The translations under genes and the position numbers were made by a program. Of a stretch of 44,049 nt of DNA, positions 1,504 through 39,915 are shown piece by piece. The notes below the pieces were generated by a model. It was not told where the DNA came from, ran no database searches, and saw only the letters and a list, made by a program, of their open reading frames with translations. The DNA comes from Eledone cirrhosa (lineage: Eukaryota): the NCBI GenBank assembly GCA_964016885.1, contig CAXHJY010000486.1, positions 1 through 44,049 of the forward strand, given 5' to 3'. Position 1 is the stretch's first letter. Each line of letters begins with the position of its first letter.

Positions 1504-3352
1504 TCAATTTATGTTTTGCATATGCCTGGGGTCGATGAGGGATCCAGAATTCCATAAAGAGATCGATGGTTTATAAAGTTTGGGGACATCTGATTTAAAA
1601 CTGTAACTTCTATCTACGGTTACTATTTTGGTTATACATTACAAGACAATTTTTATTTTAACTGTTGTTAGTTATTTAATTATTTTCATGCTCGATATTT
1701 TTCCTAGTAAATTTTAATTAATGTTAATACTGGTCAAAATAATTATTTGTAAATGTATATATGATAATCATTTTTCAATATAGTAAATTATGTACTGGAA
1801 TAGTGACATTCTTCTGAAGATTCCAAATCCCTCAAATCCATAAATCTAATGTATTATAGGAATTGTGCATATTAGTCTAGTCTATTCTTTTTCATTTGTG
1901 AAATAGAAGATTTCGATAGCCTTATTAAACTGCTGAGTGTGTATAATATCATGATAATATATTTGTTGATGATAATACAAAATAAATATTGTGCAAAGAG
2001 GACAATGGTTGCTAATTTTCAGTAAAATAGGATATCTGATAATGTGTAAATTTCATAAAATAGAACCTTCCAGTCTCAATAGAATATAGAATTCGATTTC
2101 AGTATGTAATCAAATGCTGGTTCAATAAACATTTACATATTTAATCATAATTTCTTCACGCAGCGTAATGTCTTTCTGTAATTACTATAACATTAACTTA
2201 TATATTCATAAAATCATGGAGTAATGTTCCTCTTTCTCTCATACATTAACGGCAAAGTAAAGTGGCGGCAACTAGCATTTAAAACCTAATCATAAACTTA
2301 GCACGTCAGGATATGTCTTTCTTTATGGTGGTGGCATTCTCTATTCTATTCAGATACATTAAAATATTTACAATTGTACATTTAGATACTTTAAATATAC
2401 AAGAAGAATCGCCTCAAGTGATGTGCTATTACACCAATATTAGATGTGCTATTATGTACCAATATAAGTATACTTCTCTGTTTATGGTTCTGTGCACCTC
2501 AAGTATATTTCTGTTCTATTTGACTGTATAATAGTAGCATAGTTTCTTTAATGACCCCAAGTTATTAATCTTATGAATTGTTTCTATTTTACTCTCTTCT
2601 TCTACAAACTAACTATTATAAAGTCAGATAACCTTTACTTATCCCTAATTATAGACTCTGTTCCTTTCTTAATACTCTGTGTTACATTATTTCCATTCTA
2701 TATTAGCATTTAATTCTGTTTCTCCTACTCGTATAATTTTTAACAACGTTTAGAGCTATATTCTTATATAATCAGCAACTATGTAATGATTATATATATA
2801 CAGTATGAATATTCTTTTACTGTTTAGTCAGAGAGGAAACGACAGCATCAGTAGCCCTTTACAGAGCCTCCGAGACTAATGTGAGAAAAGAAAGTGTCTC
2901 TAAACCGAAAACAAATGTTTGAGTCTGAGTGTGATCCGTTAAAGGAATCGGAAGGGCTAAGTGGTAGTGTTAAATTGGGTGATGGATTAAGTTTACCACT
3001 CATGCTCAATACAAATTGAATGACTTGTGTTGAAGTATCGAAAACCGAAAATTCGACTGAGAGATACTTTATATGATTACTTGACATCCCACAACTAAGA
3101 GTTAAATACCTCTCAAATAGCTCCATAATGCTTTAAAAAACGATCAGATTAAATAGACTACAAAAGTAACATTAATAATACATTCCTCAGCTCATGATTT
3201 TAGGGCTAATAACAGCTCTATTCTTCTCTCCTAAAAAGATGGAATGATTACAGCTCGAATCTCTTTGATCATGTGTCGGCTCTAGCAAAGCTGACTTGAA
3301 TTTAACAGTAGCAGCAACAACAACAACGACCACGACATTGACGACAACGGTG

Positions 3353-3398
<46 letters not shown>
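3353..3398. repeat. (ACT)n microsatellite
   Basis: Direct reading; explains the poly-T and poly-V ORFs. Confidence 0.95.
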
Positions 3399-3534
3399 GA
3401 GCATTTAGCACGTCGATAACAGTTTCCAAGGCCTCTGTTATTATCTCGGTAACAAAATGGTTGGGATTAAATTCTGTTCTAAATAATCGCTCTATTAAAT
3501 GTTTGAAATTTGAACATCCTGACATTAGTATTCA

Positions 3535-6500
3535 CTAGCTGACGTGCCCAGCTTCGCCCGGATAAACAGATGATAAGAGAAGACAGGTAAAAGAAAAAAT
3601 TACTGTATTAGATGTTTGTCTGGTTACAGTATGAGGCGAGTCCGTGGTGTCTGTGTGATAGAAAAAACAGTAAAAAAAATCTTCCAGATATAGCAGCTGT
3701 CTGAAATCGCCACCAAGAACGATAGACTTACCACCGAATGGCAGGTCACTACCGCAGATATCTCTCAAAGTTCTGTCCAATGGCTCCAGCAAATATCTGT
3801 GTGCCATTGGAGCCTCGTCCCAAATAATCAAAGACGTATTGCATATAAGGCCGCGAGTTCACTCAACTCATCCGGAGCCAATGGGGCCTTGAAACATGAG
3901 TGAAAGGTCCTTCCACCACTCAGCAAAGTGGCAGTGATCCCACTGGTGGCCACATGGAGAGAATTCTTCCTCTGAGCTCTGACTGCCGATAACATAGTGT
4001 TGAAACAGAATGTCTTTCCGGTGCCTCCTGGAGCATCTATGAAAACACAAATTGCTCATTAGTGGAAATCGAGTGGAAAACGCCATCGACCAATTCTCTC
4101 TGAGATTCGGTCAACATTTGCATACTTTCATCCACAATACGTTGCTGTTCCAGTGGATCAAACTGGAATAGTTCCCTCCGATCGAGTGGCACTGTCTAAG
4201 CTGCAATCTCATGTTCAATGCTAAGACACGTTGCCGCATTTCTTCATCAGGAATTGGCAAATTGAAATCTCTTAAACATTTGAAATGAACTTCAAGCAGT
4301 TGCTCAATATTGAGCAAAACAATAGCTTTCATCAAATTTTCATCATCGACCTGAAGATGATGCCTAAAATCATCAGCCATAATTCCCCAATGGCGTTCAA
4401 ATAACTCTCTTCGATCGGCAGGATTGCAGAATCCTAGAATCGTGACAAACAACTGCCTTATTTGAGCTGGCATCTGTGTTGTTCCTGTAGCTTCCATGGC
4501 GTTATTCCATTCAGCGTCATCCTGATGCTGATACACAGCCTGGTATGTTTCATATTCCACGCCATTGATTGTTTTCAAATCAGCGAAGCTCTGTTTACCT
4601 CTCGAAAAATCATTATGCAACAGAATTCGGAGATAAAACACATCACTAGATGCTGGATGGACATTACAAACCCGTCCAATAGTCATGAATCTCAACTTTT
4701 GTTTTCTATCATTCCATTTCTTTCCATTCTTATCCCACGTATAGTGCGAAGGAAAATCGCCTTTGATCCGGGTTCAAAGCATGTTCCCTATTATGCTTGA
4801 ACCACTCAGTCAATTCCGTCTTAGGGGGTGGTGCGTTAGCAATTCTTTCGACACCTCTTCTAGTGTCCTGAAAACAGACCATTTGCCTATTCTCTAAGTG
4901 AACCGTCAGTTTCTGAACGCTGGGTTTGCGTTCATTGAGGTCAAAATCGAACAATCTCCAGCAAGCTTCGCTAGATCCAATCGAGCGAACATCCTGGAAC
5001 CTGCCAACTTCATCTCCTTGGTTCACTTCCTCATTCCTGACATTGATCATTGCCCGATCATGACCTTTGTAAACATATTTGCAAGCTTTCACTAAGCTAC
5101 AAATTTCCACATTAATGACAACGATATTTCATAATCAAATATGGATTGTATGGTACAATCCATTGATTTGTAACCTCTCGACCGTTTACATTTTCGACCA
5201 AACCGCCATCTGCAGGCGACCGTCTTCTGTATGAGGGATGAGCATCCCCATCGTTCCAGGTAGTGTTCGGGACAAAAGATTTCGGAAAGTGCTTACTGCA
5301 TTGGCCATTTTTCATGCAAGGCGCTTTCCGATTTGCCACTCCGCATTGGTTGTGCACCATTGACTTTGCCACCAAGTTGCGTAGTGCCTCATTCTCCGGC
5401 AGTTCAGCACACACAACGCTGTCGTCATCCTCAGCACATCTCAATTTGAAATCTCTATATAAAATGATCAGCAAATGTGCATGTGGCAATCCTCTTTTTT
5501 GGAATTCAATTACGTATGTAAAAGTAACTATACCTCCAAAGATTCCCTCTTTTTCCACATCATCCATTATCTTTTTCAGATATCCTTTGAATACTCTTGC
5601 CACAATATCAGGACGGTCCTTTGGCTGTTGTCCTGGAAAAAGTGCATCCTTAATCATCGTTCAGGATTGCATGTAACCGTTATAAACAAATATGGCTTTC
5701 CAAACTTTCTGACAACAGCCATCGCATCCTGATAGCGAATGTTCATATATCTCGGGCCGCTGATGAACGACGATGGCAAAATGATGCGTCGACCAATTTG
5801 CTTGTAATTGGCATCACCGGCTGTTATAACATCCTGTATATTATTATACAATTCAGCTTTGATATGTGGCTGATGTGTAGCTATATAATTTAGTCTTTGA
5901 TTTTCGATCTTTGCGAATGCCATACAACAGTATTCCTGGAACAATCTGCTGGCTTGAAATAGCGCATTTCTCTGTTGATTGCTTTCGTTCAAATGGAACG
6001 CGTAAAAGTCGCGAATCGAATTATTGTGTCTATTGATGCTGATTCTCATGATCATCTAAATGAACAGACATGTTCCATCCATTTTCACCTTTTGGGTATA
6101 AAAGAACATAATGCAATGGATCGTATGCCCTATTTGATAGTCTTGAGACCACCATCTCTGCGATTGAGGACGATATCTCTCGATCCAGGCTTATCGTCCA
6201 TCAACATAGCAACTTCACAAAATCCTTCAGGGGCATTATATCGCCGTTCGTGTTGATTCCTTGGCATTGCGTCAGCCTTAATCACCAATGTTTGCTGCTG
6301 AACATTTTGCAGTTCAGCCACCAACATGAAATCCATAACATAAGGATTAGACTGTCTAAGCCATGATTGCAAATCACGGATCAAATCACTTAACCTTTGC
6401 CGTTCAAGTTCAGTTATATTTCCCCGCAACTTCATCCAAGCGATCCTGATATCCTCCTCCGATTTACTATAATCTGGATCGTTAACGTAAATTTGAGCGA

Positions 6501-7399
6501 ATCGAGGCCTCTCTCCTGGGGTAACTTCTAAATTACGGATACAATGATACAAACGGCCTTGAATGACTACATTCGGTTGCCATGCTCGACTCTCAACATC
6601 TCACTAACTCTCTGCGATGCTAAAGCTAATGAATTGTTAATTTGCCGTGAATATTTGCGTAGTAATCTACCTCGGTTTCCTTGATCACTCCACATACTTA
6701 GTATTTTAAACTCCGGTGACTCCTCATCATCCGGCATTCGCAAGGGTTCTAGTTGAACTGCTCCTTTATGACAGCACATTGTGGTCCACGTCTTTTCGTG
6801 CCTCTAAAGCAATGCTCCACAATGTGGACACTCTGCTCGTCCACCAATCTGAAAATGACACGGTTGCCGTGATCCATTTTTAATATCATCCGTTCGCCTT
6901 CTAGCCTCTTTATCCATCGCAGCACGCCGTTGCTGCTGAATTCCGGCCATCTGCTAATGATGCTCAGCCAGTTCGTCTTCAACCATTGCAGCACGCCGTC
7001 GCTGCTTGGCTTCAGTGTTTCGTTGGCGTTGTTAAGCCAGCTCCTCTTCCTTCATGGCGGCACGTCTTCGCCTCTGAAGTTTGGCGTTCCGATGGCGCTG
7101 TTCGGCCCATTTTTCATCATTCCTGGCTGCACGCCGTCGCCGCTGTAGTTCACTGTTTGATAAAGTCGAATTGCTTTTACTTTCTGTGGAACGTTGCACG
7201 CACGCACACATGGTAATAGTTACAGCGCTCACTTTGCCTCTCTGTTTCTTACTCTCCCCCCTTACTCCCACATTGGCATTATGCATATTAATTTAAGCTT
7301 GGCGTCGTTGAGGTGGGCGGAGTCGTTTGAAACCTATGAACCAATGATAATCGAGAATTATGACACGGAATAATGACATTGTTGAAATTAATATATAGA
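3535..7399 (-). mobile_element. Helitron, decayed autonomous-type copy with both termini
   Basis: On the minus strand it begins TCTATATATT (7399) and ends ATCCGGGCGAAGCTGGGCACGTCAGCTAG (3535), a subterminal hairpin plus CTAG, followed by T. It carries RepHel coding remnants. Confidence 0.96.
3692..7211 (-). pseudogene. Helitron Rep/PIF1-helicase (RepHel) pseudogene, frameshifted, helicase C-terminal half deleted
   Basis: ORF pieces: basic N-terminal RRRRAA repeats, CCHKG, LPSSFISGPRYM..YQDAMAVVRKFGKPYLFITVTCNP (Rep motif 1), VIEFQKRGLPHAH (HUH), KYVYKG, Walker A DAPGGTGKTF (about 4010-4040), [27 protein letters not shown] and LGGDFRQLL, then an abrupt jump to the terminal segment. Confidence 0.95.
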
Positions 7400-15910: not shown

Positions 15911-18224
<2,314 letters not shown>

Positions 18225-19457
18225 ATTGAATTTGATAATAGTACCAAACTAGCTAATTTCTTGGATGTATCTCTTAATCTTGACACTGGCCTATATTACC
18301 CTTACCATAAAAACAATGAGAATCTTAATTATGTTAACTTTAAATCTAACCATCCTACCAATATCAAGAATGCTATAGTTAATAATATTGGAAATAGAAT
18401 ATCTAACATATCTTCTAATAAAAACATCTTTGATGCTAACGCCAATTACTATAATAACGCACTTTCTAAAGCCGGCTATCCAGATAAAATCAAATATAAT
18501 AAAGAAACAAATTCTAGGAAAACTTACAGTAGAATATTTAATCATAACCATTCCAATAATTTTAATAAAAGACCTAGATACAAAAACATAATCTGGTATA
18601 ATGCTCCTTTCTCCATCTCTATTAATAACAATATTCCTAAATTATTTTTTAGTGCCTTAAATAAATGCTTCCCTCCCTCACATATCTATAGTAAAATATT
18701 TAACAAACACACCATCAAATTTTCGTATTCTACATCCTCCAATATTTCCAACATCATTTCTAAACACAACAACAAAATATTAAATACTAAATCTCTTCCT
18801 TCCAATATTGAATCTCATAATAACAATAATAGTACTCCTGACGTCATTGTAAACCCTAGGCTAACTTCTGTAAACCCAAATGCAACGTCAAACACAACTT
18901 CGCTAAATGTTCATAATCCAACTCTAAATCAAGAAACTATTATTCCTATTATTCCTATCGCAAACAACTTCTCCAATCCAATTCCTTCTATAGATAACAC
19001 TAGATCACTCATTAATAATCTCTCTAATTGCAACTGCCGCATTAAAAATAAATGTCCTCTCAACAACCATTGCCTCGATAAAAACTTAATTTATGAATGT
19101 AAAATTATAACTAGCACCAATTCCTTCACCTATTTTGGCTCCACTTCTACCTCTTTTAAAGCTCGTCTCTATAATCATCATTCATCTTTCAAATACAAAC
19201 TTAAAAGAACTAACACTGCTCTCTCAGAACTCATATGGTCCTTAAAAGACAAAAACATTAAATATAACATCTTTTGGAAAAAGATTTCTTCTGCATCCTC
19301 GTACTTGAACAGTTCTCTATCTAAAATCTGTAATCTCTGCCTAAATGAAAAATTTACCATTATCTCTAACCTAGAATCCATAATAAATAGACGCTCGGAT
19401 TTGTTTTCCATCTGCCTGCATAAATTCCTTAGAACTTTTCACAAAGTATACAGTTAA
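18225..19457 (+). CDS. PLE polyprotein C-terminal part (RT motif E/thumb, linker, GIY-YIG endonuclease); 5'-truncated, no true start
   Basis: The open frame extends to the TA tract: [34 protein letters not shown]; IIWYNAPFS; [16 protein letters not shown]; [26 protein letters not shown]; CNLCLNEK; [13 protein letters not shown]. Confidence 0.9.
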
Positions 19458-20689: not shown

Positions 20690-20756
20690 TTTTATCTGAT
20701 GAAAACACAAATATTATTGTTTGATGATGTTTGTTTTTGAAATGCGCATAATAAAA
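20690..20756 (+). ncRNA. Type I hammerhead ribozyme, canonical core, minimal palindromic stem III
   Basis: TTTTAT-CTGATGA-[AAAC...long stem II...GTTTTT]-GAAA-TGCGCA-TA-ATAAAA. Stem I TTTTAT/ATAAAA; ATGCGCAT is self-complementary; predicted cleavage after AUA at 20750. Confidence 0.88.
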
Positions 20757-26041: not shown

Positions 26042-26209
26042 TAACGAAGGAAATGTGGTAAGGAACCAGGTGGACCATAACGCACCAAAGTACTCAATAC
26101 TTGAGGTAGTAGAGTGGGTAATAGGAACCAGTAAGACCCCGACAGCTGAGCTCAAGCCGTTTCGTCGAAACGGCTTGAGCTCAGCTGTCGGGGTCTTACT
26201 GGTTCCTAT
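26042..26209. mobile_element. Minimal fold-back PLE insertion related to the 28575-31294 element
   Basis: 26042-26120 is homologous to 28575-28653. 26121-26164 and 26166-26209 are perfect 44 bp inverted arms with a 1 nt centre. Flanked by (TA)n. Confidence 0.88.
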
Positions 26210-27390: not shown

Positions 27391-27572
27391 TGTGTAGAGG
27401 AAGCACACGAGTTAGGATATATATATATATATGAAAACAGTGAGAAAGAGACGATTATTTGGAAGAAAAATATATTTTTTTTCCTTCTTTGTTTCTCTCT
27501 CTCTCTTTTTCTGGGTTAGAAAATGATTAAAACGAAATGTTTTACTTTGTGTGAAGTGTTAAGGTATTAGTT

Positions 27573-27899
27573 AAACACAACTTTACATGTGCATCTGAAA
27601 ACCTTATCTATGTTTTGACCTGCTCAGGTTGTCAAGAGCAATACATAGGACAGACAAAAAACACCCTCTGTCAACGTATGACCGTCCATAAATCACAAAT
27701 TAAAATACAGGAATACAGAAAGATTGCATTTAGTGAACATATCACCAATTGTGCTCTCAACCAACATCCAAACTTTAAAATTTTCCCCATTTACAAATTC
27801 ATAGACAACGCTACTTTCATCCAACGTACCAATAAGGAAACACATTTCATAAATAAATTTCAACCCCTACTTAATGCTCTAAAAATCGGACCAATCTAA
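27573..27899 (+). pseudogene. PLE GIY-YIG endonuclease fragment
   Basis: KHNFTCASENLIYVLTCSGCQEQYIGQTKNTLCQRMTVH...SEHITNC...KETHFINKFQPLLN; the frame starts exactly at the inversion junction. Confidence 0.9.
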
Positions 27900-28350: not shown

Positions 28351-28544
28351 ACAATAATTAAATATATAAATAGATAAATAAATGCCATTGTTAAATAATA
28401 AATAAATCAACTAATACCTTAACACTTCACACAAAGTAAAACATTTCGTTTTAATCATTTCTACCCCAGAATAAAAAAGAGAGAGAAACATAAAAGGAAA
28501 AGAAATATTTTTCTTCCTAATAATCGTCTCTTTCTCCCTGTTTT

Positions 28545-28576
<32 letters not shown>

Positions 28577-28668
28577 ACGAAGGAGTTGTGGTAAGGAACC
28601 AGATGGACCATAACGCACCAGAGTACTCAATACTTAGGGTAGTAGAGTGGGTAATAGGAGAAAGTATG

Positions 28669-28767
28669 ACTCCGACGGCAGAGCTCAAGCCGTTTCGACG
28701 GCTATTTCCGGACTAAAGTAAGAGTTTTTTTAGTCTGGTAAATAAATAGCCGAACTTTTCAAGGAGT
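28669..28767 (-). ncRNA. Type I hammerhead ribozyme with compensatory U3-A8 core and full stems
   Basis: Minus strand: ACTCC-TTGAAAA-G(TT)CGGCTATTT...AAATAGCCG(T)C-GAAA-CGGC-TTGAGCTCT-GCCG-TC-GGAGT. All three stems pair; GUC triplet. Confidence 0.82.
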
Positions 28768-29230
28768 ACTTCCTTATATGGGAAGATTGTAGTTGTCAAA
28801 AGGATTGGTCACAATTTACACAGAAAAGTCTATCATGGCAGTGGGTGAGGGGTGGGGGTGGCTGAACTTGCCTGTAGAACGATAGGGGAGTTGGTAGAGT
28901 CGGTCAAGTGTTGAAGGTGAAATCTACACGGCAAATTCTAAGGAATGTGTATGAAAGTAGGTCAGAGGAGGTAGGCGAAAAAAGGTTTCTTTAGAAAAAG
29001 GAGGAGGGACGTTATAGAAATAGTAAATCGAATGCATTTAGAGGACAAAGAAAAAATATAATAAAAAAGAATATAATAAAAAATAAGAGAAAGATATATC
29101 AGAATGTAAGATTGAAAAGTGAGAAGTGAAATAAAACAAAAACTAAGAAGCCTAACACGGCTGCTATATTTAGTTGGTTCTGCTTTTTCGGCCAATGGTA
29201 TAGAATGAGTTGCTAGATGAGAATTATTGA

Positions 29231-30631
29231 GGACAAACGGAACACAAAATTCATCCAGTTTGACATAGAGTTACTATGCTCCTTACGGCGGCCTTGGACT
29301 TTGCCGAAACACTCGCGCGCATCACTGACCAGGAAAGAAATATCATTCCCTACGCCAGGAAGACAGTCCTACTTTTCAACAACTCCAAGTGGATAAAGGG
29401 ATCTCCCGACTCCCCCTTCGACGTCAGCATGGGCGCAACCGATTCGGCCGAGGTCACCGATCTTATAGGATTATTCCTACTATTTAAACTCACTGAAATG
29501 TTTCCCGCATTCGGCGGTGGATTGTACCGAGACGATGGGCTCCTTACCCTCAAATGGTACAACCCCAGTAGTACAGACCGGGTCCGTAAACAACTTATCA
29601 ACTTTTTCCGGGACTGGGGATTTAAAATCACCCTACAAACGTCCCTAACCCGAGTAAATTTCCTGGACGTTACCCTCAACCTCGAAAATGATCTGTACTA
29701 CCCATACAGGAAACCAAACGACAACCTGCACTACATCCACCGCCGCTCTAACCATCCTAGAAACATCACCAATAATCTGGTTAAACACATCTCCCTCCGC
29801 ATATCTCGTTTGTCCGCTAATGAGCAGATATTCGACGAACATACGCCTCATTACAACCAGGCCCTCGAGCGGAGTGGCTTCCGGGAGGAAATATCCTTTT
29901 ATCCCGCTTCCCCTAGCGGAACCAGCAGGCGACGTCGCCGATCACGCCACGTAACGTGGTTCAATCCTCCCCACAATGCCGAGATGGCAACACCTATCGG
30001 GAAAAATCTTCTTTAGGCTCCTCGAAAAACACTTTCCATCACAACACCGCTACCACAACATAATCAACAAAAACACTATCACGCTATCCTACAGCACCAC
30101 ACCTAACTTCGCACAAAACATCGTCTCCTCAAAAAACTCAACCTCTATGGAAGAAACAACCTAGAAATTAGTGGAGAGCCGACCATGAGGTGTAACTCCC
30201 CTGATGGATCTACGTGCCCCCTCAACAACAGATGCCGAGAACGTAACGTGATCTACCAGTGCAACGTGAGGACGGACACCGCCAACAAAGCTTATATAGG
30301 AATAACCGCTTGTGACTTTAAGACCCGGCTCTACCAACACCGACATACTTTCCGAAACCGGGTCCGACGACGTGCCACCACACTTTCGAGCCATATCTGC
30401 GACCTCCAAGATAATAATATAACTTACCATTTTACTTGGAGCTTACTGTTCAGAGCTAACTCTTACACGGAAAGACGCCGTCCGTGTAACTTATGCTCTG
30501 AGGAAACATTACAAATGCTGTTTACGAAGGATCAACTCCTAAACAAAAAAGACGAACTGGTAACAGCATGCAAACCCAAATTGCAGAAGACTTACCTCGC
30601 TCTCAAACCCCCTAACGATCCGGGTGGGTAG
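29231..30631 (+). pseudogene. PLE reverse transcriptase + GIY-YIG endonuclease, disrupted
   Basis: FIQFDIE (motif A, followed by a small deletion), PFDVSMGATDSAEVTDLIG, GLYRDDGL, VNFLDVTLNL, YIHRRSNHP, TWFNPP; frameshift near 30010 and stop at 30162-30164; CPLNNRC..NVIYQC..AYIGIT..FKTRLYQH; CNLCSEE; LLNKKDEL. Confidence 0.94.
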
Positions 30632-31180
30632 ACAAGGGCTGGAACACCCCACTTGCCGAATAAGATAGGGAAACCCCAACTTATATAGGTAGATGTACCT
30701 CTTTTCTTTTCCTCTGTGTTTTCTTCTTCCCTTTGTATCCTCCTATCACTTCTTTCCACCACCGATCTTCTTCCTCGTTCTTTTTTCCCCTTTCGCCTAC
30801 CCCGAGGCAGCCCATCGGACATCCTTAGCCTCAGTACCCCCACCCCAGTAACTTATAGATAGCATTGGCCGATTACGCTATACTAACTATTCATAGCAGC
30901 TGTGTTCGACTCCAGAGATGTGGTATTAATTTTTAATATCCAATTCTAAATGTTCAATAATTCTCATCTAGCAACTCATTCTATAGCATTGGCCGAAAAA
31001 GCAGCACCAACTAAATATAGTAGCCGTGTTAGACTTCTTAGTTTTTGTTTTATTTCACTTCTCACTTTCCAATCGTACAAGTTCAGCCACCTCCACCCCG
31101 CACCCACTGCCATGATAGACTTTCCTGTGTAAATTGTGACCAATCCTTTTGACAACTACAATCTTCCCATATAAGGAAGT

Positions 31181-31279
31181 ACTCCTTCAAAAGTTCGGTT
31201 ATTTATTTACCAGACTAAAAAAACTCTTACTTTAGTCCAGAAATAGCCGTCGAAACGGCTTGAGCTCTGCCGTCGGGGT
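31181..31279 (+). ncRNA. Second copy of the U3-A8 hammerhead, with a G5C substitution (probably inactive)
   Basis: ACTCC-TTCAAAA-G...C-GAAA-CGGC..GCCG-TC-GGGGT; same stems as 28669-28767. Confidence 0.72.
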
Positions 31280-31309
31280 CATACTTTCTCCTATATATAT
31301 ATATATAGT

Positions 31310-38380: not shown

Positions 38381-39915
38381 TATATGTTGGTTGTATACCA
38401 ACACCTCAGTATGCAGATTGGAGCACTTGACGAAGTGCGCATGTTGGTTGGGTTACTCCGGACTAATGTAAAATAAAATAAAATAAATAAGTCAAATGTT
38501 TAAAATTTAGCTTCGTTTATTACTGCTATATATATTTCGGTGACAGCCATCTTTGGCTGTGACCTCTTCAGGCAGTCCGAATTAGTGTGATATAGACAAG
38601 TACATATGTTGTTGAGGTGTACAACTTTGTTAATACTCTGATATGCCCAGTTCCTGGTTGGGATGTTATTTCACTGAGGAACTGGAATCATATGAATTCA
38701 AACAAACGAATTTCAGTGTCAAAGGGCCTCTTCTCCTCTCGTTGGTCAGTTGTTAGAACATTCCTCATTCAAAAGTCTATAGAAATTCGTTCTGAGCCAA
38801 GCCAATCCGTAGTTGTTGTTATTGTTAGGTACATCTGACCTCAATTCTTGTGTTGGTAGTGTTGTTATTGTTGGTGTTAGCTCAAAAAAATTGATAAAGT
38901 GGTAGAAGGAATAAGATGGTAAAGGAACAAAATAACAAAAAAATGTCAAACTTCCCATTAGTCAGTTTTGAGAGCATTCCTCTCTCTTATTTTGCATCTA
39001 TGTACTTTTTGTTTTGATTCATGTGGCAGAAGAAGATATTAACTAATTGTTTGCTTAATTACTGCGTTTCATACTTTAATTTACATTCCGTTCTACTGTA
39101 CGGTACTATCGTTCAATATATGGATAATATATCCATAATATCCAATATTGATCCCTTTTCAAAATTTCTTACTATAATTTTTCGTTCTACTGTACGGTAC
39201 TATTGTTCCATATATTGATAATATATCTGTAGTATCCAATATTGACCCCCTTTTCGAAACTTCTTACTATAATTTAAACATCTCCCTATTTATTTTATAT
39301 ATATATATTTTTATTTACTTCAATCAAGATTTTAACTTTTAATTTCTAATTTTCAATCTTAATTTCCTCTGTGAAACCATAATATCTAGAATTAATTTTA
39401 TATTCTCTTAGCGAGGGTGGTCAACTCTATTGTCCAAGTATAAATTAGGGGTAGTATTGAGGCCTATTGAAACTCATACTCTGCCACCACTACTAGGTTT
39501 CGGTCAACCTCCATTGGCAGGGCAAATAGCAGTAAACTTTAACCGTGTCATATTACGGGCCTGGATGGGGGTGATTGTTTTGGTTGAGGGTGGGGGGAAC
39601 TTGCCTAGGCTAGTTTCGTTGAGTTTGGGGTAGTGGATGGTTCCTTCACTTTTGCATCTGCGCTAACCTGTGGGGGTGGTTTGGGGCTCACAAGGGACGG
39701 ACGAGGGATTCAAGAACACGCGCCTTGTCCGTTCCCTTGTCGTTTCAATTTGGATTGCCTCGGGAACGTAACCTTATTATGTAAAAAGGTGTCTGATGAT
39801 GTCATGGCACTGGGTACACGGAATCGTGTGGCCACTGTCGTCATTGAAATATGTATCACAGCATTATAATTAAAGGACTTTAACATCTGAAACTACTTCG
39901 CATTTTCTTATTCTA
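38377..39915 (-). mobile_element. Probable PLE 3' region/pseudo-LTR without recognisable ORF
   Basis: Bounded by (TA)n and (TA)/(TG)n; a canonical HHR followed by AATAAA lies near the left end; internal 95 bp tandem duplication (39086-39275). The right boundary is inferred. Confidence 0.6.
38522..38576 (-). ncRNA. Type I hammerhead ribozyme, canonical core, minimal palindromic stem III
   Basis: Minus strand: ACTGC-CTGAAGA-GGT(C)ACAGCCA-AAGA-TGGCTGT(C)ACC-GAAA-TATATA-TA-GCAGT, immediately followed by AATAAA. Confidence 0.92.

Follow-up and report, generated by a model that had tools for sequence, protein, structure and literature searches.

The window, the whole stretch of 44,049 nucleotides analyzed here, harbors the remains of a Penelope-like element (PLE) with a hammerhead motif on the minus strand (Table 1). 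A truncated open reading frame (ORF), a 3' untranslated region (UTR) with a sister motif, and an inverted, tail-bearing 3' end all lie between (TA)n runs. The ORF corresponds to amino acids 266-717 of the full-length relative L137 at 76% identity and is interrupted by a stop and a frame break near 30000-30140. The two 3' ends form an inverted repeat pair (28654-28870 and 31078-31294, 97% identity), and 234 bp of the inverted copy are missing from the plus-strand 3' UTR; the ends of this difference lack GT-AG, and it was therefore not taken for an intron. The original prediction placed the motif in a Penelope pseudo-LTR. The assignment to a PLE stands, based on the reverse transcriptase (RT) and GIY-YIG ORF and the terminal repeats, but the sister copy, which retains U3 and A8 and carries G5C as described, is an inverted repeat on the plus strand and not a direct pseudo-LTR partner.

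Table 1. Features of the hammerhead-bearing element and a related mini-insertion, in window positions.
Feature	Position	Strand	Basis or detail
Type I hammerhead motif, subfamily A1	28660..28775	-	Sequence reading and folding
5' core box U3-U4-G5-A6-A7-A8-A9 (UUGAAAA)	28756..28762	-	U3 = 28762, A8 = 28757; sequence and family counts
Long two-part stem II	28697..28755	-	G10.1-C11.1, 2x1 internal loop, 9-bp proximal helix, distal helix
Stem III ACGGC/GCCGU, 5 bp with 9-nt loop	28675..28693	-	Fold and pairing across copies
GAGCUC loop palindrome	28681..28686	-	Same majority letters in all lineages; flanking loop bases vary
C17 of the GUC triplet (28676-28674)	28674	-	Predicted cut 3' of C17, from hammerhead numbering
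Inverted copy of the 3' end of the element, 5'-truncated and with a tail, holding the hammerhead motif	28576..29230	-	
Tail of ~77 nt ending at (TA)n	28576..28653	-	In full-length tandem copies runs on as 5' UTR of the following ORF
5'-truncated, broken RT and GIY-YIG ORF, Hydra-clade PLE (assigned by motifs)	29231..30631	+	
3' UTR with the sister hammerhead at its end, followed by (TA)n without a tail	30632..31294	+	U3 = 31186, G5C = 31188, A8 = 31191
Mini-insertion of the youngest subfamily: tail and two head-to-head hammerhead 3' halves, no 5' core	26043..26209	.	

The relative L137 has an open 719-aa ORF in which an RT with RWR (RWK-like) and DKT motifs is followed by a CxCX5C linker and, at the C terminus, a GIY-YIG endonuclease with CxxC and CxH motifs and no CCHH. 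In the available portion of PMC8557442, the Hydra clade is defined by these motifs: RWK-like, DKT, CxCX5C, CxxC, CxH, and no CCHH. Further traits of the clade, namely a (TA)n target, 5' truncation, and tandem or inverted copies with a tail, are present as well. The carrier is assigned to the Hydra clade by these motifs and by-eye comparison with printed Hydra proteins; the two window ORF pieces matched no Pfam family significantly, and the assignment rests on motifs. The full-length element carries the hammerhead in both terminal repeats, with the predicted cut ~190 nt upstream of the ATG and the motif 20 or ~97 nt inside the two 3' ends. The unit is coding and 3.1-3.5 kb long, which differs from the short non-coding tandem unit of retrozymes. 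Head-to-tail arrays contain up to four units that differ at 0-1 nt of ~1,900 within an array and at 2-21 between arrays; four-unit arrays of near-identical full-length elements with a period of 3.53-3.54 kb lie at G000:C1:437200364-437211069 and C1:91476507-91487246. The first 507 codons are open in 10 of 14 element copies examined.

The rest of the window contains other mobile element remnants. A fragment of another GIY-YIG endonuclease element (Pfam PF01541, E 5e-8) lies at 27417-27896 (plus strand) and 28409-28561; it has inverted repeats of 156 bp that are 91% identical, and the Hydra insertion starts at its right end. A second, AT-rich Hydra-like ORF fragment (18075-19457, plus strand) is 33% identical to L137, and ~1.2 kb downstream of it a CUGAUGA hammerhead-like motif with a short palindromic stem III lies at 20696 (plus strand). 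A canonical CUGAAGA minimal hammerhead with a short palindromic stem III is present at 38571 (minus strand), a motif class that recurs in many of the loci examined. Broken ORFs at 3187-6600 (minus strand) contain motifs that we take to resemble a Helitron-type replication initiator and helicase.

Sequence and minimum-energy fold agree with the original prediction on the type I hammerhead at 28660-28775, its UUGAAAA core and GUC triplet, the 5-bp stem III with its GAGCUC loop, and the long bipartite stem II. The three helices surround the core and are open at stem I, in which CUCC (28766-28763) pairs with GGAG (28673-28670) on the minus strand. G10.1 is at 28755, C11.1 at 28697, and GAAA at 28696-28693. 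U4, G5, A6, A9, G12, A13, A14, A15.1-U16.1, H17, and G10.1-C11.1 are all present, and positions 3 and 8 form a Watson-Crick U-A pair. The minimum-energy structure of the window motif is the three-stem hammerhead (-36.2 kcal/mol, z = -3.6, equalled by 0 of 200 shuffles), with stem probabilities of 0.98, 0.93, and 0.98. A competing hairpin in which GAAA is buried has a negligible probability in this copy but one of 0.57-0.85 in three representatives of subfamilies A0, B2, and B3. Constrained folds of single old copies of lineages C and D, described below, give a near-zero hammerhead probability, in sequences with 5-15% decay and, in lineage D, an unmodelled one-base register shift; these values were accordingly set aside. 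Minimal hammerheads of metazoan PLEs that act only as dimers are recognized by an absent or unstable stem III and by a palindromic stem III or loop III. Here the stem III hairpin is stable (5 bp, -6.5 kcal/mol), while the GAGCUC palindrome is invariant. The stem III self-duplex is computed at -26.9 kcal/mol as against 2 x -6.5 for two hairpins, and hence a dimer route is available. The format of the 9-nt palindromic loop recalls the HIV-1 dimer initiation loop; kissing loops mediate HIV-1 dimerization.

The genome searched for family copies comprises 3.0 Gb. U3-A8 is present in 36 of 37 copies among the best 30 of 40 scored loci, which were drawn from 3,087 candidates. Exact patterns with the same spacer and 3' anchor matched 5,017 U3-A8, 1,537 C3·A8, and 63 G8 copies, while reversed-pattern controls gave 0 matches. 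The presence of U3-A8 in 5,017 copies indicates that it is inherited rather than the decay of a single copy. The original proposal of a compensatory swap is not supported in the form given: A8 is fixed in the A/B lineage while position 3 toggles, and the 1,537 C3·A8 copies, which have no Watson-Crick 3-8 pair, and 63 G8 copies are incompatible with a clean exchange. Of 100 matches listed for a pattern with a free core, 82 belong to the family: 58 U3-A8, 19 C3·A8, 2 U3·G8, and 3 otherwise decayed, as judged by eye. A subfamily with a dead core was considered for the other 18 and rejected: they match by chance a different repeat, whose own core is canonical CUGACGA. A diagnostic C3·A8 haplotype has 595 exact copies; among 100 matches listed, 93 are C3·A8, 5 U3-A8, and 0 C3-G8. 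The mismatch is therefore the state of a source element and not scatter. Stem I of most copies of the window subfamily is CCCC/GGGG rather than CUCC/GGAG. The bulged stem I extension (AAGUA/UACUU, with a 3-nt bulge) exists as predicted but is confined to the window subfamily. As regards a possible tertiary contact between stems I and II, this subfamily thus offers a bulge within an extension that other subfamilies lack. The expectation that CUGANGA descriptors bypass the family was borne out, with thousands of copies missed in one genome.

Older relatives were found by a canonical-core pattern and then widened by similarity. Lineage C, with ~68% protein identity to L137, contains 12 U3-A8, 13 U3·G8, 4 C3-G8, and 1 C3·A8 copies in a similarity set of 30; by exact pattern, 88 U3-A8, 6 U3·G8, and 3 C3-G8 occur among 100 matches listed of 241. 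Lineage D is the most decayed of the lineages (15% from the column majority), and 15 of its 18 copies are C3-G8. All four pyrimidine-3/purine-8 states are thus found in groups of related copies. Lineage D already shows a long stem II, as well as GAGCUC on a 5-bp stem III, around a canonical CUGAUGA core in the same frame. The large stems are therefore older than U3-A8.

The canonical core in older relatives also bears on whether an ordinary structured terminal repeat merely resembles a hammerhead by chance. At E<=10, neither the whole window nor 28560-28900 matches an Rfam hammerhead model, as such a chance likeness would predict; the miss probably reflects a limit of the Rfam models for long stems. 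The reversed-pattern controls stand against chance, and published Hydra-clade elements have a hammerhead at an equal 3'-terminal position (PMC8557442, portion available). With the core of lineage D, chance resemblance is effectively refuted and can be considered exceedingly improbable.

Other hammerhead-like families in the genome have U3-A8 or a longer stem III, and neither trait is unique even here. Six tandem 316-bp units at G000:C1:6519939-6521556 (minus strand), each with a UUGAUAA (U3-A8) hammerhead-like motif, form a candidate non-LTR retrozyme. Another family, for example at G000:C1 4923452 and 14214605, combines U3-A8 and a short stem II with a stem III that is fully palindromic and contains GAGCUC; it stands beside C3-G8 relatives and is possibly an independent origin of U3-A8. 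A separate old family (L140, L147, L148, L150, L153, L156) combines a canonical core with a stem II region of ~55-60 nt.

The order of the 3-8 states was read off a maximum-likelihood tree of the endonuclease region, which includes 36 of 46 copies with a linked match, excludes those of <240 nt, contains no lineage D rows, and has three rows that had been picked for sporadic G8. From lineage C, the tree forms a ladder from U3·G8 (E) to U3-A8 (A1 and A2, including the window), C3·A8 (A0 and B2), and again U3-A8 (B1 and B4), the last of which are the youngest rows and have open ORFs. The C3·A8 rows stand between older and younger U3-A8 rows and are ancestral to the youngest U3-A8 subfamilies. Constraints that unite the C3 rows (p = 2e-6) or the A/B U3 rows (p = 1e-44) in a single clade were rejected. 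A tree of the ~120-nt hammerhead region has weak deep nodes and was used for grouping copies only. C3-G8 would be the ancestral state, a proposal that rests on the age of lineage D and on published Hydra elements rather than on the endonuclease tree. U3-A8 may have arisen once or twice. The ladder is inferred from the endonuclease gene and may be affected by recombination between the ORF and the hammerhead.

Conservation differs between the core and its surroundings. The core columns except 3, 7, and 8 are invariant (12 of 12, as against 35 of 90 other columns; p = 4e-5), as are the 6 palindrome columns (p = 0.005), in four similarity-selected groups whose relatedness makes these p-values indicative. 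The loop bases that flank the palindrome change, and N7 takes four states. The structure is paired at 89.5% over 18 subfamily representatives, compared with 33-50% when slid. Two-sided changes exceed all 500 shuffles by cell count but not by pair count (126 of 500), and three compensations in stem II, whose proximal helix changes in a compensatory manner between lineages, trace to one lineage split. Covariation, which the original prediction named as a check, is thus seen in stem II, while stem III, 97.8% paired with zero two-sided changes, offers only invariance. The consensus fold of the 18 representatives keeps only stem I, the proximal part of stem II, and stem III. The outer GGA pairs of stem I stay 94% paired, and the register varies in distal stem II and in the bulged stem I extension, which is not conserved across subfamilies.

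The fixed remaining core bases together with GAGCUC argue that the catalytic core is maintained and that dimerization is an option, as far as the alignments can indicate. A vestigial hammerhead, in which cleavage no longer matters, the fold is kept as a binding or pairing platform for the RT-endonuclease, and positions 3 and 8 drift by transitions, would account for the four 3-8 states in groups of related copies and for a template that is usually uncut. It also accords with the portions available of PMC11167929, in which hammerhead mutants have no effect on in vitro PLE insertion, and of PMC8557442, in which Naiad elements thrive without canonical hammerheads. Yet G5, A6, A9, G12, A13, A14, and the GUC triplet are fixed across lineages that are ~68% identical in protein, and beyond, and the mismatched states appear transient: the U3·G8 groups have few members, and U3-A8 took the place of C3·A8. 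A vestigial hammerhead is accordingly a doubtful alternative.

Since the cut site is upstream of both ends of the element, any copy with GAAA in it was produced by copying through that site. Among ORF-bearing junction copies (best 30 of 40 scored, several from shared arrays), 26 of 30 also run through the upstream cleavage site; 3 others begin downstream of that site, and 1 begins at the site, which is within chance. Matches to the 3' half number 70,853, ~11-fold more than the 6,617 with the 5' core. Most of these genomic fragments stop in the 3' strand of stem II: 24 of 30 matches listed, some of which are two arms of one insertion, retain just 3-22 nt upstream of G12, and 0 end at 23-108. 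The simplest reading is that RT stalls in a folded, uncut stem II, although the truncation could have other causes.

Hairpin mini-insertions of ~165-200 bp, consisting of a tail and two head-to-head 3' halves, occur genome-wide. One of them lies at 26 kb in the window and was originally described as a hammerhead relative with a paired stem III; it has neither the 5' core box nor the 5' strand of stem II and is thus no hammerhead. Its exact junction is common to 59 loci. A single fixed left breakpoint for this element was rejected, since the query ended at the junction and thereby selected it; an unbiased sample has varied breakpoints in stem II. Simple snap-back of cDNA at the AGCCG/CGGCU hairpin was likewise rejected, as by inspection it does not reproduce the 26 kb junction. 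An identical private change in both arms (L046, L059) suggests that both were copied from one RNA segment.

The favored explanation, held at somewhat better than even confidence, is that the terminal-repeat hammerhead of this Hydra-clade family is a weak or conditional self-cleaver whose fold remains uncut on most RNAs that are reverse transcribed. A core pair that changed several times, including to a mismatch that multiplied, is predicted to imply weak or conditional self-cutting. Occasional cleavage would free unit-length RNA from tandem read-through transcripts, perhaps followed by religation to a circle. The GAGCUC loop would pair two copies through a kissing loop or a swapped stem III, and dimer pairing and the protein of the element would switch cleavage on. 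Both reverse-transcription start sites would lie downstream of the cut, where fast constitutive cleavage would destroy the template, and hence a wobble or mismatch at 3-8 would be tolerated. The fixed core, the two-sided changes in stem II, the amplified 3-8 variants, the read-through, the stem II ends, and the protein-dependent hammerhead of Anolis speak for weak or conditional cleavage. Against it, conservation of the core could serve protein binding instead of chemistry, the single junction copy of 30 at the cut site is within chance, and stem III and the palindrome are invariant without covariation. The clean monomer fold of the window copy would fit an efficient ribozyme equally.

An efficient monomeric ribozyme, in line with the original suggestion of monomer cleavage, would have replaced C3-G8 with U3-A8 without loss, been spared dimerization by a stable stem III, and cut at both terminal copies, and the unit RNA would be circularized before reverse transcription. 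The monomer fold is the minimum-energy structure; in the portions available, natural U3-A8 hammerheads are said to be active in vitro (PMC3088659), and a fungal PLE hammerhead with a large helix III cleaves as a monomer (PMC4209133). The near-identity of the units in four-unit arrays fits a circular template, but such arrays can equally arise through unequal crossing-over or from read-through transcripts. After its C3·A8 phase the lineage came back to U3-A8, which is also the prevailing state in lineage C (88 of the 100 matches listed); the C3·A8 subfamilies nevertheless grew to 1,537 copies and are parent to the youngest ones. A pure monomer would not need an invariant palindrome, and the GAAA-burying hairpin in the A0, B2, and B3 representatives weighs against efficient folding. 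Efficient monomeric cleavage is thus rather unlikely.

A more elaborate version of weak or dimer-gated cleavage is put forward tentatively. The 3-8 pair would have crossed a fitness valley from C-G through U·G to U-A, a high-copy C·A, and U-A again, with the hammerhead serving as a dimerization and loading platform. The palindromic loop would pair two RNAs for two-strand priming that gives inverted insertions, stem II would stall RT and seed tens of thousands of hairpin mini-insertions, and cleavage would be tuned low or gated by the dimer.

Several described systems resemble the window family in part. The Hydra-clade PLEs of Craig et al. 2021 (PMC8557442) share the clade motifs, the (TA)n target, tail-bearing inverted and tandem insertions, and a type I hammerhead near the 3' end. 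Their Hydra rows in File S2 are all CUGANGA with a short stem II and a stem III of 3-4 bp closed by a loop of 1-3 nt, whereas the window family is mostly U3-A8 with a 5-bp stem III, a 9-nt loop, and a stem II of ~55-59 nt; the tail is 30-40 nt there and ~77 nt here. The stem III sequence of the window family is absent from the supplement of PMC8557442 in the portion available. Hydra relatives in metagenomes have a downstream hammerhead in 6 of 8 loci, all CUGANGA with a short stem III, representing three distinct sequences.

Schistosoma mansoni Cercyon PLEs (Cervera and de la Pena 2014, PMC4209133) likewise have U3-A8 in the terminal repeat, in >1,000 copies that CUGANGA misses, and ~1,300 PLE hammerheads with U3-A8 are given for this species. 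Cercyon hammerheads differ in being minimal, without a stable helix III, and the available portion mentions no amplified C3·A8 or U3·G8 intermediates. The same source reports low activity for metazoan PLE hammerheads. Its fungal and protist PLE hammerheads are, like the window motif, type I with a large helix III; they have no recognizable loop-loop contact and show monomer activities of 1.97 and 0.16 per min; their hosts, unlike the window element, are endonuclease-less telomeric PLEs. Since U3-A8 and a large helix III are both published for PLE hammerheads (PMC4209133), the originally suggested distinct PLE ribozyme subclass was overstated. Each trait is known; the literature searched contained no example of the two combined in the Hydra clade and no description of this architecture, although the supplementary figures of PMC4209133 and the rest of a 2026 preprint (bioRxiv 10.64898/2026.07.22.740005) could hold similar motifs.

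The tail of the Anolis Poseidon PLE (Frangieh et al. 2024, PMC11167929) is set by two start sites of reverse transcription that lie downstream of the hammerhead, and uncut RNA is the template, as proposed here. That hammerhead belongs to another clade, is C3-G8, overlaps the ORF start, and has no stable stem III described in the available portion; it needs the PLE protein to cleave, and mutating it leaves in vitro insertion unaffected. Non-LTR retrozymes (PMC7229834; bioRxiv 10.64898/2026.07.22.740005) have type I hammerheads in tandem units and are kin of PLE terminal repeats, but are short non-coding units of a few hundred bases, in contrast with the 719-aa ORF and 3.1-3.5 kb unit of the window element. 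With respect to the core pair, natural U3-A8 hammerheads have been reported with earlier in vitro activity cited (PMC3088659), and rescue of a type III hammerhead was seen with the G3-C8 swap only (PMC9901934). The literature searched yielded no measured cleavage rates for C3·A8 or U3·G8.

Published work describes the role of the hammerhead in PLEs as unclear and cleavage as dispensable for insertion in vitro (PMC11167929, portion available). Within the family, a single scaffold occurs naturally with C-G, U·G, U-A, or C·A at 3-8, a dated series in which each state is tied to a known amplification. The series lets cleavage rate be set against transposition success and thus tests whether PLEs need cleavage. 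Thousands of such copies in a single genome escape both CUGANGA descriptors and Rfam, and the points at which insertions are truncated bear a measurable footprint of the fold. Of greater interest than the two traits first flagged are the mismatched intermediate that was amplified and the footprint of truncation in stem II, as they make the role of cleavage in PLEs testable.
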